Assembly: GCA_039000985.1 (NCBI GenBank)
Contig: JAWBMD010000002.1
Coordinates: 33,578-97,577 of the forward strand
Direction of reading: 5' to 3'
Length of the DNA: 64,000 nt
Origin: Candidatus Aenigmatarchaeota archaeon
Lineage (GTDB): Archaea > Aenigmatarchaeota > Aenigmatarchaeia > CG10238-14 > SpSt-28
How positions within the stretch are numbered: the first letter of the stretch is position 1; each line of letters starts with the position of its first letter. The notes under the pieces are model-generated. The model made no database searches and had not been told where the DNA came from. It saw only the letters and a program-made list of their open reading frames with translations. The translations under genes and the position numbers were made by a program. Positions 22,127-26,169 of the stretch are shown in pieces.

Positions 22127-22436
22127 TTGAGCTATTGGGAGTGGTAGGCTGAGTGCGTCGGTCGAAACCTTCGCACGTACACCACCACCCCATCAACGCA
22201 ATCGTCTATTGCCGCTCTTCATTCTTTATGGTGTTGCCACCATAAAGAAATGGTAGCCTATTTTCCCGGGCGGCTTCGTCCTTAGATGCCTTCAGGACTT
22301 ATCCACTAGCACGTGGCTACCCGGCATGCAATTAACAGCCGGTACACCAGAGGTGCCGCACACCCGTTCCTTTCGTACTTGAGTGTGCTTCCGGTCAGGC
22401 TACCTGCACCCCCTGTAGATAGTGACCGAACTGTCT

Positions 22437-22506
22437 TTGTCGCCATATGAAACGACCAGCGCGATCACTTACTCATTATTTTCGTAAGTGGTGCGTTTCA
22501 TATAGT
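22437..22506 (-). other. rRNA mini-intron A (70 nt, ORF-less, canonical BHB)
   Basis: 4-bp helix GUCG/CGAC flanked by 3-nt bulges UGA and AAA, plus a 12-bp stem CUAUAUGAAACG/CGUUUCAUAUGG. Cutting after the 2nd bulge nucleotide restores GUCGUG|AGACAGUUCGG. Confidence 0.85.
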
Positions 22507-22660
22507 CACGACGTTCTGAACCCAGCTAGCGTCGCCTTTTAATCAGTGGGCACCTGCACCCTTGGCCGCTGCTGCACGGCCAGGAGAGGCGGAGCCGACA
22601 ACGACGCACCAACGCGCCGGGTCGATTTATCCCATCACTATTGGGATTGTAGACCCCAGT

Positions 22661-23311
22661 AGAGATGTGTGGACTTTCACCGGCCACGGGCCCATTTTTG
22701 GGGATTAGCAAGACATTTTAATTTATTTTCCAGTTTTTTTCTCTTCAGGGGATGTGAAAAACCTATTATTTGGTTAAATTTTTCTATATTTTCTCTTCCA
22801 TTTATAGGAAGAACCTTCACTCCCCATTTAAGATTCCAAATCTTGCCGGTTTTAATACCCAAATCTAAAAGAAGATTTTGACAAAGTCTAAGTAATTCTT
22901 CATTTTTATTCGATAGTGTTATCCTGTTTTTATTTTTTATTACACTACCTTCTGCATCAAATATTCCCCTTAGAAATGCGATTTTGACTTTTTGGTTCTC
23001 TTGGAGTAGCCAGTTAGATTTACTTTTTAGTTCTTGTAATTTTTGGAAAATCTCTTTTGAGTATATTCGAAGTCTGAATATACCATTTTTATCTTTTCTC
23101 TTTTTTATTTTAGGTTCTATTTGAAATGAATTTTTAAAAGCTTTTGCTAGAATTTCTATCCACTCTTTGTTTTTTTGTTCAACTTCTATTAAGAACTCTC
23201 CAATTTCTGGTCTACTGTAGAAGTTTCCATCTTCTAATGCACCAAGAATGAATGCTATGTCTTCTAGCATAAATCTGTTTTTGTTTTTGTTATATTTAAG
23301 CCTTGCTAATC
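22661..23311 (-). mobile_element. rRNA intron B (651 nt) carrying a LAGLIDADG homing endonuclease gene
   Basis: An AT-rich block interrupts ...CUACCUCGGGGAUA | ACUGGGGUC..., the GGGGAUAACUGG peptidyl-transferase-centre sequence. The intron ends pair (AUUAGCAAG with CUUGCUAAU, and GGGG with CCCC) with a 4-nt bulge at the 5' junction. Confidence 0.8.
22677..23270 (-). CDS. LAGLIDADG homing endonuclease (double-motif, ~197 aa)
   Basis: Two motifs, IAFILGALEDGNF and IAFLRGIFDAEGSV. The start is taken at MLEDIAF (ATG at 23270), because the track ORF's first 66 codons (to 23468) read through rRNA exon and another intron. Confidence 0.8.
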   Translation of the reverse strand: MLEDIAFILGALEDGNFYSRPEIGEFLIEVEQKNKEWIEILAKAFKNSFQIEPKIKKRKDKNGIFRLRIYSKEIFQKLQELKSKSNWLLQENQKVKIAFLRGIFDAEGSVIKNKNRITLSNKNEELLRLCQNLLLDLGIKTGKIWNLKWGVKVLPINGRENIEKFNQIIGFSHPLKRKKLENKLKCLANPQKWARGR

Positions 23312-23456
23312 TATCCCCGAGGTAGCTTTTCCGATACCTGTAACCCCTATCGATAGGAGTTACAGTATCGCTAGCACACGCTTTCGCGGCTGGTTCCCTT
23401 GTGTTCGGGAACCAGTCAGCCCAGCTTTTGCGCTTACACTTTACCCCTGATTTCTT

Positions 23457-23541
23457 TCTGGTATTCAAAGGCTTTTTTCATAAGCTACCTCTTCTTTCAT
23501 TAATCAATCTGGGGCAAAGTATTCATAAAAGCCTTTGAATA
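23457..23541 (-). other. rRNA mini-intron C (85 nt, ORF-less, canonical BHB)
   Basis: 4-bp helix UGGU/ACCA, bulges CAU and GAA, and a 14-bp stem AUUCAAAGGCUUUU/AAAAGCCUUUGAAU. Ligation gives CCCUGGUCA|AAGAAAUCAGGGG. Confidence 0.8.
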
Positions 23542-24039
23542 TGACCAGGGTAAGCTGAGCTTCGTGCTCCCCCGATATCTTTTCGAGGGAGTGCCGCCCC
23601 AGCCGAACTGCCCACCTAGTGCTGTCTCCTAACGGATAAGCCACATGAGTTCCGCTAGCTGGTGTTACACTTTCCTCTCGGCTTTGGCCGAAACCTACAC
23701 CTAATAGCGAGTCCCAGCTACTCTATGTAGCAGAACTCATATGGCAACACCAGGCTGCAGTAAAGCTCTACGGGGTCTACATTTCCCACAGGGGGTCTCC
23801 AGTCTATTCACTGGAAAGACATTTTCACCGGGTTCATCCCAGGGACAGTGTCCAAGTCGTTAAGCCATTCAAGCGGGTCGCCAATTAAGCGACAAGGGAT
23901 TACGCTACTTTACGACGGTCAGAGTTACCGCCGCCGTTTGCGAGGGCTTAGCCAGGTTGAAACCTGGTTTCACACACTCGCACTGGGCAGGCTTCAGAGA
24001 CCGTACAAATCCTTTTCGAAGTAGCGGTCTCCTGCGTTT

Positions 24040-24110
24040 TTTAACCAAAAAGAGGAGAAAATAATTCAACAATCCAAGTAAGTAAACTTTAATACTTCTC
24101 CTCTTTTTGT
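24040..24110 (-). other. rRNA mini-intron D (71 nt, ORF-less, canonical BHB)
   Basis: 4-bp helix UAAC/GUUA, bulges AAA and AAA, and a 14-bp stem CAAAAAGAGGAGAA/UUCUCCUCUUUUUG. Ligation restores ACUGUUUAACAA|AAACGCAGG. Confidence 0.85.
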
Positions 24111-24231
24111 TTGTTAAACAGTCGCCTGGACCTTGTCACTGCGATCTGCAGTCCCACCCCAGTAGCTAGTTTTTCACTAACCACTGGTTAGAGACTGCAG
24201 ACATCCCTTCTCCCTAAGTTACGGGACCAAT

Positions 24232-24361
24232 CTCGACTATTGTGAGGGTTTAAAAAAAATAAAAGTTAGTAGGCCGGGAATTATTTATAAAGTACTTAAA
24301 CCTTTTCCTCCTTTTTTTCTTCTTTCTTCTTCTTCGGCATACTCCAATTCCCTCACAATAT
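24232..24361 (-). other. rRNA mini-intron E (130 nt, ORF-less, canonical BHB)
   Basis: 4-bp helix CGGC/GUCG (one G.U pair), bulges AAA and AGA, and an 11-bp stem UAUUGUGAGGG/CCCUCACAAUA. Ligation restores AACUCGGCAA|AUUGGUCCCGUAACUUAGGG. Confidence 0.85.
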
Positions 24362-26169
24362 TTGCCGAGTTCCCTTGGGACGATTCTCCCGACCCACCGT
24401 TCCCTTCTCAGGAACCCCACCTGTGTCGGTTCTCGGTACCTAGCTTGTGGATCGCTCCTGTTTTTCTTTTCAGGGGCTCCTCGAATTTCGGCGACTCTGC
24501 ATACGCAGAGCTCATCACCCTTTCATCTACTTCTCCTCATTACGAGACTCCGTAGACTTATGGGTTTGACTTACGCGCCGATATCGAGAAGCGTCGAAAA
24601 ACAGGCTTGTGTCACCACATCTACCACAAGCGTACCGGAATATTAACCGGTTTCCCTAATCGGTGTTGTAGGTTAAACAACACCTTAGGGTAGGACTAAC
24701 TGCTGGCTGATTTACATTGCCAGCAAACCCTTGGAGTTAAGGTGGCCGGGATTCCCACCCGGTTTTGCTGTTACTCATGGCAGGATCTGCATTCCAGGCA
24801 GGTCCATCAAAGTTTACACCTTGACTTCTCTCCTACCTGGACGCCCCCCTACCTTATGGTATCCTTAACGATACCACAACCCATGTATCGGTATGGGGCT
24901 TAGTGCCTTCCATTTTCGGTGCAGAGCTTCTCGGCGGGTAAGTTATTACACACTTCTTAGCTGATGGCTACTTCTAGGCCCACAGCCCCGCTGTCTAAGA
25001 AGTTCCACTTCCTTCATCACTTAGCCCCAATTTAGGCACCTTAACATGGGTCTGGGTTGTCCCCCTTTCGGATAAGGAGCTTTCCCCCTTACCCTCACTC
25101 CCATCTTCTATGGTTGTTAAGGGTTCTGAGTTTGACAGGAGAACTGGGTCTTTCGACCCTTGGTCCTCCAATCAGTATCTTTACCCCTTAACAAACCTCA
25201 GATGGGGCTGAACTGTGGTCCATTTCGGAGGGAACCAGCTATTGCCAGGTTCGTTAGGCTTTTCACCCCTATCCCTGGCTCACGTGAGGGATTGGGTCTC
25301 ACCACCACTATCGGCCCTCCGTCCCTCGTTAGAGAGACTTCGGCCTGGCCAGGGATAGATCACCTGGCATCCAGCTCTAGAAGTTATAACTTCTAGAGAT
25401 TCTGGTCTTATCCTAGTGATTTAGGCACTTTCATACCCAGCCCCACGCTCTTTCGAGCTACAGGCTTTTGCTTTCGCTACGGCTACATATCTTTCGATAC
25501 TTAGCCTCACCACTGGGATAAACTCCCTGCCCCATTCTACGAAACGGACGTACTGATGCTGAGCTTCTCACTCTTTCACACCAGTACTGACTATCCCCAT
25601 ATGGTTTCAGGCTCTTTTCACCGAGATTTCTCCCTGCTTTTCAGCTTTCTCTCACGATACTTAGTTCGCTATCGGACCCGGGACGTATTTAGAATTGGAT
25701 GTCGATAACACCCAACTTCCCACTCCATACTTATGGAATGGTACTCGGGAAATTCGCCATCTTCCTTCCAGCCCTTCTCCTACGGGATTTGACTCTTACC
25801 ATTTTTATGGTAAGATCTATCACCCTCTATGGTGCTGCATTCCAGCAGACTTCGGATGAGCTGGTTAGGAAGGGCGCGAATTCCCATTAACTCCACATCT
25901 CCTTTGGTTTATCACCAAGGGATTTGGTTTGTTCTGTGCCGGTTTCAGTCGCCCTTTACTCCCGGCATCTCTATTGATTTCTTTTCCTCCCCCTATTAAG
26001 ATGCTTCAATTCGGGGGGTTCCCCTTCCTTACGGAATATGTCTCAACGACACAGGATTCCCATTCGGAAATCCTGGGATCAATGGTTGCATGCACTTACC
26101 CCAGGCTTTTCGCAGCTTGCTACGTCCTTCTTCGGCGCCCGAGCCAAGCCATCCACCATATGGGTTCCC

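Follow-up and report, generated by a model that had tools for sequence, protein, structure and literature searches.

Eight probable bulge-helix-bulge introns in the 23S rRNA gene of a Candidatus Aenigmatarchaeota archaeon

We investigated the 23S rRNA gene in a 64,000-nucleotide (nt) stretch of DNA (hereafter the window) from a Candidatus Aenigmatarchaeota archaeon, and find that this gene probably carries eight archaeal bulge-helix-bulge introns (29, 31, 130, 71, 87, 616, 42, and 70 nt), a reading to which sequence comparison leads us to give a probability of roughly 85%. The gene lies on the minus strand at 22115..26181 and matches the Rfam model of archaeal large subunit (LSU) rRNA, RF02540, in full (model positions 1–2987, 2164.5 bits). 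As encoded, it measures 4067 nt vs. 2987 nt for the model, an excess of ~1.08 kb. The eight introns sum to 1076 nt and leave 2991 nt of mature rRNA, and their G+C content is 27–43% vs. ~52% in the exons. The original prediction for this DNA had five introns in the gene, amounting to 1,007 nt and leaving ~3.0 kb of mature rRNA. Its intron total was too low and its count is now eight well-supported introns (one of the five has been split and two have been added), while the mature length comes to the 2991 nt given above. Its central claim, that endonuclease-type introns interrupt conserved LSU blocks of a 23S gene, is borne out by motif geometry, empty sites, covariation, and low intron G+C. The earlier finding was thus real and its interpretation essentially right, though it undercounted the introns, merged two of them, and set one in the wrong register.

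The window holds a single, unlinked 23S rRNA gene of a small, low-G+C hot-spring archaeon of the Candidatus Aenigmatarchaeota (DPANN). G+C is ~27% in the surrounding genome vs. 44–48% over the rRNA gene, and an Rfam scan found no 16S or 5S gene within the 64-kb window. The gene for aTrm56 (21194–21715, Pfam) adjoins the 23S gene and was used to find two relatives, L001 (JAWBPV010000050) and L002 (JANXEB010000044), both titled Candidatus Aenigmatarchaeota, in which aTrm56 and 23S have the same arrangement and the 23S gene is 94% and 85% identical to that of the window, respectively. An exon 20-mer specific to the clade (GGTGCGTCGTTGTCGGCTCC) served as a metagenome probe and returned 23 contigs. 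Eighteen of these carry more distant 23S genes (identity of high-scoring segment pairs ~65–77%; 96% for a 72-nt piece of L025), several of them intron-less. The remaining five (L009, L010, L012, L014, and L022) were ignored because the spliced 23S of the window found no match in them; they are mutually 96–99% identical and apparently share some other gene. Standard 23S numbering was taken from E. coli rrlH.

The cuts predicted by the bulge-helix-bulge motif coincide with borders defined independently by alignment at eight sites (Table 1), and removal of the introns restores the intron-less length, as found in relatives or in E. coli, at all eight junctions. The covariance-model alignment, which had been proposed as a check, puts large inserts at all five places originally claimed. 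In sub-alignments these measure 145 nt for 10 near ~1830, 72 for 1 near ~1903, 91 for 4 near 2400, 692 for 31 near 2555–2585, and 71 for 1 near 2692 (model positions); the first block of the full alignment has 30 nt in place of 1 near position ~364, at intron G.

Table 1 Introns and associated features of the 23S rRNA gene (window positions; sites in E. coli numbering)
Feature	Length	Position	Strand	Site or context	Central helix	Bulges	Inner stem or other detail
Intron G	29 nt	25788..25816	-	333/334	UGAU/GUCA	AGA/AAU	9 bp, UCUUACCAU/AUGGUAAGA
Intron H	31 nt	25369..25399	-	676/677	CCAG/CUGG	AAU/AUG	10 bp, CUCUAGAAGU/ACUUCUAGAG
Intron E	130 nt	24232..24361	-	1677/1678	CGGC/GUCG	AAA/AGA	11 bp
Intron D	71 nt	24040..24110	-	1784/1785	UAAC/GUUA	AAA/AAA	15 bp
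Intron C	87 nt	23456..23542	-	2306/2307	CUGG/CCAG	UCA/AAA	15 bp
Intron B1	616 nt	22697..23312	-	2449/2450	GGGG/CCCA	AUA/AAA	GAUUAGCAAGGC/GUCUUGCUAAUC
Intron F	42 nt	22627..22668	-	2477/2478, helix 89 loop	GUCC/GGAU	ACA/AAA	CAUCUCUACUG/CAAUAGUGAUG
Intron A	70 nt	22437..22506	-	2597/2598, GUGA loop	GUCG/CGAC	UGA/AAA	12 bp
Exon between B1 and F	28 nt	22669..22696	-	A2450/A2451 and 5' strand of helix 89			AAUGGGCCCGUGGCCGGUGAAAGUCCAC
LAGLIDADG homing endonuclease open reading frame of B1	198 amino acids from ATG	22677..23273	-				Pfam LAGLIDADG_3 (PF14528), E = 3.6e-24
Candidate I (retained segment more likely than intron)	36 nt	24153..24188	-	helix 63 hairpin	UCUC/GGUG		motif only with C.U mismatch
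Processing stem of 23S, 5' strand		26168..26209	-	flanks cofolded
Processing stem of 23S, 3' strand		22087..22126	-	flanks cofolded

Introns A, D, and E had been placed exactly by the original prediction, as motif, model inserts, and empty sites agree, and for these three alone does its statement hold that cleavage after the second bulge nucleotide restores the exon sequence exactly. In all three, the inner stem of 11–15 bp stacks directly on the motif. Site A is empty (GUCGUG^AGACAG, where ^ marks the junction) in 16 relatives, L002 and L024 among them. In L001 the intron measures 69 nt and has the central helix GUCG/CGGC, and L025 has a 41-nt intron at the same position with helix GUUG/CAAU; L025 also has several hundred extra nt between 2520 and 2597. 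Neither L002 nor L001, the latter 94% identical, has intron D; both read UUUAACAA^AAACGCAGG, the exact empty site, while L017 carries a 566-nt intron at this site with the same UAAC/GUUA helix. Intron E measures 116 nt in L001 and 149 nt in L002 and is missing from all more distant relatives, the difference in junction length being zero. Within intron E, a Lys/Glu-rich mini-open reading frame of 13–16 codons is conserved (window 24299–24343, minus strand; peptides MPKKKKEEKKEEKV in the window, MAKKKKEEKKEEQ in L001, and MPKKKEEKKGKEEEKQ in L002); it may simply be the purine strand that pairs with the U-rich tract downstream.

For intron C, previously given as 23457–23541 (85 nt) and thus one nucleotide off at each end, two registers of the motif fit. 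The CUGG/CCAG register yields ...GGUC^AGAAAUC..., and the UGGU/ACCA register yields ...GGUCA^AAGAAAUC.... We take the intron as 87 nt because only the former gives the length and loop of intron-less relatives (GAGGUCAGAAAUCUC), and the model's insert of 91 nt for 4 likewise equals 87 nt. The 85-nt alternative is a valid motif but was rejected, as its spliced product is 2 nt longer than in every intron-less relative. The central helix at this site follows the exon through four states (CUGG/CCAG, GAGG/CCUC, GAGG/CCUU, and CGGG/CUCG), and RNAalifold on nine site-C introns found compensatory changes in 17 of 24 pairs. L020 has an intron at site C, and L018 and L006, which are 97–99% identical, do not.

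The largest revision concerns what had been described as one 651-nt intron (22661–23311) with the junction GGGGAUA^ACUGGGG. Intron-less relatives show instead a 616-nt intron (B1), a 28-nt exon, and a 42-nt intron (F). L002 lacks only 616 nt in this stretch, and the predicted product of B1 removal, GGGGAU^AAUGGG, is the exact empty site GGGGAU^AAUGGGCCC of L002 and L024, with identical flanks. All intron-less relatives read GGGGAUAAUGGGCCCGUGGCC(UC/GG)UGAAAGYYCACAUUGAC... (GGGGAUAAUGGGCCCGUGGCC...CACAUUGACCC), contiguous with GGGGAU, and the spacing from GGGGAUAA to GUCGGCUCC is 70 nt in them, equal to that in E. coli. The 28 nt between the two introns are therefore exon, since every intron-less relative keeps them at the E. 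coli spacing. A 35-nt "mini-intron" directly after B1 was also considered and ruled out, as intron-less relatives show AAUGGGCCC...CAC to be exon.

Removal of intron F gives GAAAGUCCAC^AUCGACCC, equal in length to GAAAGCCCACAUUGACCC of L024 and GUUCAUAUCGAC of E. coli. Its central helix covaries (GUCC/GGAC in L002 and GCUC/GAGU in L025), and L028 has a 46-nt insert at the same site. The sequence ACUGGGGUC, which both the original prediction and the covariance model had read as exon, sits inside intron F. Both were misled because the exon of the clade is divergent (AAUGGG vs. the consensus AACUGG/AACAGG) and ACUGGGGUC resembles the consensus. Intron F also contains CUACUGGGGUCUAC, a mimic of the usual archaeal exon AUAACUGGGGUC, and it is there that the Rfam model was aligned. 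The window and L002 keep the string UGGGGUCUA in intron F, L001 has it minus one G, and L025 has GUGGGGUCUA.

Introns G and H were found by comparing the corrected spliced sequence with intron-less relatives, in which they appear as inserts of the window only. Removal of G gives GGGUGAUAG^UCCCGUAGG (GGGUGAUAG^UCCCGUA), which matches the consensus GGGUGAuAgCCCCGUA and aligns without gaps to E. coli; in L002 the motif is retained with a different compensating inner stem (CCUUGCUAU/AUAGCAAGG). At H, the borders of the strict-motif match coincide exactly with a 31-nt window-only insert, and the spliced GACCAGAA^GCCAGGUGAUCU equals E. coli GACCCGAA^ACCCGGUGAUCU in length, with no gaps; L002 has a 30-nt intron here whose inner stem is compensating and unrelated to that of the window. 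A possible ninth intron, candidate I, was left out of the count. Apart from the mismatch in its motif, the window-only insert there measures 31 nt, not 36, and excision would break a UCUC/GGGA pairing kept by relatives (...GUCUC GAAA GGGAC...). This segment is more likely a retained expansion segment than an intron.

At the eight sites the bulges are exactly 3 nt, the inner helix is 9–15 bp at every site, and the central helix has 4/4 bp in G, H, E, D, C, F, and A and 3/4 in B1, where L001, L027, L028, and L029 have 4/4. A strict-motif scan of the gene returned 10 matches vs. a mean of 2.1 in 200 dinucleotide shuffles, but the count alone is weak evidence given this mean and because 14 of the 200 shuffles reach at least five. 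From the 2.1 shuffle matches we estimate a chance density of ~8e-7 per given start and span, and the exact agreement of the motif with eight independent borders is far beyond chance. A window-wide motif scan (9-bp inner stem, G-U allowed) was discarded as uninformative at 27% G+C, with 685 matches on the plus strand alone. Compensatory change maintains the structure: where the exon differs at sites C, F, A, and G, the intron side of the central helix has changed to match, and the inner stems have been swapped for unrelated complementary sequences at H, G, B1, and C. Presence and absence vary over short distances, D being gone in the 94%-identical relative, and A and B1 in the 85%-identical one.

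Several observations weigh against the eight-intron reading. In our hand analysis of folds, sites A, C, and E have only a weak or interrupted outer exon–exon helix, so that the motif is relaxed there, and at site A this helix consists of a single adjacent C-G pair followed by a mismatch. The inner stem of F has two mismatches, and the central helix of B1 has a G.A mismatch in the window. Native rRNA helices also give a bulge-helix-bulge-like motif, e.g., at 23638–23742, so the motif by itself is no proof of an intron. Neither endA nor rtcB is among the window's open reading frames of at least 120 amino acids, and excision, ligation, and intron circles are all steps that we infer. Lastly, a retained functional segment could also account for the wide distribution and the conserved core of intron C. 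The hBHBh' form of the motif in archaeal pre-tRNA introns was reportedly laid out by Marck and Grosjean in 2003. As the outer helix of this canonical form is weak or absent at several sites, the introns are relaxed substrates. In known archaea, relaxed substrates need endonuclease forms of broader specificity, and the sequences suggest that this organism may have such a form.

If some or all inserts were lineage-typical expansion segments kept in the mature rRNA, which we regard as very improbable, one would understand why C, E, G, H, and F are common to all three Aenigmatarchaeota genomes, and why site C is occupied, with a conserved insert core, in many distant lineages; the helix 63 insert (candidate I) does resemble an expansion. 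Yet the inserts interrupt the peptidyl-transferase ring (at 2449/2450), the loop of helix 89, and the 2597 tetraloop, and their borders coincide exactly with endonuclease motifs whose central helix covaries with the exon. Precise empty sites are found in close relatives. The introns are far poorer in G+C than the exons, and the length after removal differs little from that of the model (2991 vs. 2987 nt). The earlier preference for introns over retained expansions is upheld by the same precise empty sites, covarying motifs, and ring and loop positions.

In the peptidyl-transferase ring, the window (22560–22700, minus strand) and L001–L029 differ from E. coli by C2452U, A2453G, C2496U, A2497G, C2499G, and A2503U (A2503C in L027 and L028), although A2503 and C2452 are ordinarily near-universal in 23S rRNA. 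These substitutions are not errors, because they are present in more than 20 independent contigs. They might otherwise have pointed, through C2452U, A2453G, C2499G, and A2503U in particular, to a decaying rRNA pseudogene or an assembly chimera with junk inserts. We consider the chance of this negligible, as the contigs sharing them include intron-less ones of 23S size, two other genomes have the gene likewise beside aTrm56 with the same introns, and the full-length model score is 2164 bits.

B1 is probably a mobile element and encodes an I-DmoI-like, two-motif LAGLIDADG homing endonuclease (Table 1). The open reading frame is intact, its two LAGLIDADG motifs being ILGALEDGN and LRGIFDAEGS, and the best match in PDB is I-DmoI (E = 8.5e-8, residues 7–174). 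The open reading frame crosses the 3' splice site, with its final 17 coding nt and the stop in the downstream 28-nt exon; the stop is a UGA within the conserved GGUGAAAG (window 22677–22696, minus strand). We found 25 homologues, and those with 53–71% identity were traced to L027, L028, and L029, whose introns occupy the identical site GGGGAU^...^AAUGGGCCC with helix GGGG/CCCC or GGGG/CCCU and, in each, a different compensating inner stem. The site is thus occupied in L001, L027, L028, and L029 and empty in L002 and L024, with identical flanks, and the coexistence of empty and occupied alleles with identical flanks is as homing predicts. The endonuclease presumably cuts intron-less alleles at GGGGAU^AAUGGGCCC and would spread by homing; in intron-less DNA of the L002 type the target reads ...CTACCTCGGGGATAATGGGCCCGTGG.... 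The short introns have no open reading frame and have been gained and lost between close relatives. L027 (GCA_003649545.1, QMSD01000061) is labelled "Thermoprotei archaeon" at NCBI, but its 23S has the clade signature (AAUGGGCCCGUGGCCGGUGAAAG... and GGUGCGUCGCUGUCGG) as well as a B1-type intron, and it may be mis-binned or mis-classified.

An insert of 616 nt with such a gene could in principle be a self-splicing group I intron. Position 2449 is a classical group I site, and LAGLIDADG genes are known from both intron kinds. The LSU genes of Woese-, Pace-, Micr-, and Aenigmarchaeota do contain group I introns, which in some cases share the gene with bulge-helix-bulge introns (PMC6125680). However, Rfam group I and group II models have no match in the gene, at the gathering score or at E <= 5. 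The sequence outside the open reading frame (~40 nt 5' and ~20 nt 3' of it) is too little for a ribozyme core, and the bulge-helix-bulge motif has correct cut sites and covaries in five lineages. A group I origin of B1 is accordingly highly improbable.

In the precursor, the last four nt of each upstream exon pair with four nt near the 3' end of the intron. By extension from archaeal tRNA and rRNA introns, the tRNA-splicing endonuclease EndA would cut after the second nucleotide of each bulge, and an RtcB-type ligase would then join the exons and circularise the introns. One 2991-nt 23S would need 16 cuts and eight exon ligations, including that of the 28-nt exon with the peptidyl-transferase A2451 strand. 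The endonuclease acts on both rRNA and tRNA (PMC7714728). Two tRNA genes on the plus strand of the window (49255–49365 and 53152–53278) have anticodon-loop inserts (42 and 44 nt against 3 in the model, an excess of ~39 and ~41 nt; found by Rfam and missed by ARAGORN in bacterial mode), and because of these inserts of ~40 nt the splicing pathway must exist in the organism. A heavy reliance on splicing endonuclease and ligase is a reasonable reading of these sequences. Six contigs of 2.9–3.2 kb (L004, L008, L011, L015, L018, and L019) contain an intron-less, circularly permuted 23S in which the 3' end meets the 5' end within a few tens of nt, so that each contig spans roughly one 23S unit. They resemble assembled circular pre-23S intermediates (or metatranscriptome data), which hints at processing of 23S by endonuclease and ligase in those lineages.

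Cutting need not be followed by joining, and in some bacterial rRNAs intervening sequences are excised and the fragments left unligated. The inserts might likewise be cut at the bulge-helix-bulge sites without religation, the mature 23S being made of non-covalently held fragments. DNA alone cannot tell ligation from simple excision, no ligase gene is among the window's open reading frames of at least 120 amino acids, and nine base-paired pieces are conceivable for peripheral hairpin-loop sites such as C. This arrangement would, however, leave a free 28-nt piece with A2451, and the sites of G, H, and B1 are conserved strands, not hairpin loops. The intron-bearing tRNA genes of the window require a ligase, and the ~3-kb intron-less 23S contigs of related lineages run unbroken across site C. 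To our knowledge, exons are ligated in every archaeal bulge-helix-bulge intron studied. We therefore hold unligated fragments to be improbable and retain the scheme in which the exons would be ligated.

Intron C has a further property. Site-2306 introns from lineages whose exons are only ~68–77% identical have a common internal core, which in the window is laid out as stem / AUGAAUA / 12 nt / UUGA / UUA / AUGAAAG / 12 nt / AUGA / stem, i.e., four UGA-containing boxes in the order C, D', C', D, plus a terminal stem. This box order with 12-nt spacing follows archaeal C/D guide RNA rules (PMC7994747). Boxes C and D have an invariant UGA core in nine sequences, with L005 lacking the GA of D'. In all nine, C and D' are 12 nt apart, and the C'-to-D spacer is 12 nt in four (window, L001, L002, and L024) and 14 nt in five. 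GGUAGCU(U/A)AUGA is invariant though the opposite strand varies. In the window, L001, and L002, the D guide is complementary at 10/10 positions to exon AAGCUACCUC (E. coli ~2434–2443), just 5' of GGGGAUAA, the complementarity ending at box D, and the N+5 rule applied to it points to E. coli U2438 (the U of AAGCUACC).

Against a guide function, the boxes are degenerate (AUGAAUA for RUGAUGA and AUGA for CUGA), and the D-guide pairing is not significant, being matched somewhere in 23S by 214 of 2000 shuffled guides. The D guide of the distant group makes 6 bp, a mismatch, and then 2 bp, and the best site of the D' guide has a mismatch adjacent to the target. Pairing between the two spacers is also feasible, with covariation at one base pair, and Rfam C/D families have no match. 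The D' spacer as a guide for the exon just downstream was rejected, as in L024 and the distant group it does not follow the exon. Fibrillarin, L7Ae, and Nop5 genes are absent among window open reading frames of at least 120 amino acids. We therefore put forward only tentatively, and with more doubt than confidence, that intron C may be an ancient, conserved box C/D-like RNA within the 23S precursor of many DPANN lineages. The predicted partner of GGUAGCU(U/A)AUGA is AAGCUACC, a universally conserved strand immediately 5' of the peptidyl-transferase GGGGAUAA. Once paired, the intron would either direct 2'-O-methylation (at E. coli U2438 by prediction) or act as a folding chaperone, and then leave as an endonuclease-released circle. 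If true, intron C would be for rRNA what the tRNA-Trp intron guide is for tRNA, and intron-encoded snoRNAs would have a parallel in prokaryotes. We know of no precedent for a guide RNA in a bulge-helix-bulge intron other than the tRNA-Trp intron, and a literature search found no paper on C/D RNAs in rRNA introns. The core is thus a testable lead for a guide RNA borne by an rRNA intron.

The intron kind is already known, and it is the density in one gene that is unusually high. What is unusual here is the presence of eight introns in one gene, four mini-introns of 29–42 nt, and a 28-nt exon with A2451. With eight introns per 23S, ribosome production would depend on tRNA-splicing enzymes to a rarely documented degree. 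It would be an extreme case in a reduced-genome DPANN symbiont, with 16 endonuclease cuts and eight ligations per 23S, including those of the 28-nt A2451 exon. A literature search found no paper on 23S introns of Aenigmatarchaeota. The set of empty and occupied sites lends itself to work on how DPANN introns are gained and lost and on homing by their endonucleases. There is also a lesson for annotation: the standard LSU covariance model misaligned the peptidyl-transferase region because the exon of the clade is divergent and one intron mimics the consensus by chance, and intron borders in such lineages are best set by intron-less relatives together with the bulge-helix-bulge rule.

Cofolding of the 23S flanks gave a processing stem of 21 bp, a 5x5 internal loop, and then 14 bp (Table 1). 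A canonical bulge-helix-bulge was sought within it and rejected, only the symmetric 5x5 internal loop being present. Elsewhere in the window, an open reading frame of 1915 amino acids without a Pfam match lies beside the rRNA region (27591–33338, minus strand). A GmrSD-type restriction endonuclease gene adjoins an N6/N4 DNA methylase gene at 11224–13575, the two being a probable defence pair. Positions 1–7400 contain no complete open reading frame of at least 120 amino acids and have slightly higher G+C (~27–33%); they may belong to one very long gene running off the edge of the window.

Protein-spliced archaeal rRNA introns have been known since the 1980s. Bulge-helix-bulge introns of rRNA have been found chiefly in Thermoproteales and Desulfurococcales (PMC4496867). 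The introns described here resemble those of these two orders (the I-DmoI intron in the 23S of Desulfurococcus mobilis; 16S introns, PMC4496867) in interrupting conserved blocks, in the 4-bp helix with two 3-nt bulges, in the two-motif LAGLIDADG endonucleases of some, and in a presence that varies among relatives. They differ in that the host is a DPANN archaeon with ~27% genomic G+C, not a crenarchaeote, and in that there are eight in one gene, four of 29–42 nt and two parted by a 28-nt exon. A passage of PMC11291895 gives the hBHBh' motif for archaeal pre-tRNA introns. Every junction here follows from the same geometry and the same cut, after the second nucleotide of the bulge, and the same enzyme pathway is presumed, whereas the host RNA is an rRNA and the outer helix comes from rRNA context and is often weak.

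In DPANN, group I introns are found in LSU genes at LSU/1923, 1931, 2500, and 2593, and bulge-helix-bulge introns were noted in the same genes (Nawrocki et al. 2018, PMC6125680). Host group and gene are the same as here, and homing endonuclease genes are frequent there, but the present gene has no group I match and its sites are 333, 676, 1677, 1784, 2306, 2449, 2477, and 2597. A box C/D guide RNA inside the archaeal pre-tRNA-Trp intron is described in a summary passage of PMC7994747 (Clouet d'Orval et al. 2001). Intron C is like it in box order, 12-nt spacers, terminal stem, and complementarity to the host RNA (10/10, ending at box D), and unlike it in having degenerate boxes, a complementarity that is not significant, and an rRNA as host. 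The rRNA insertions of bacteria of the candidate phyla radiation (PMC11270868) offer a parallel in that they occur in small-genome symbionts, are multiple, and in some cases have homing endonucleases; those insertions, however, are bacterial and are not bulge-helix-bulge substrates, whereas the archaeal motif is present at every site here.

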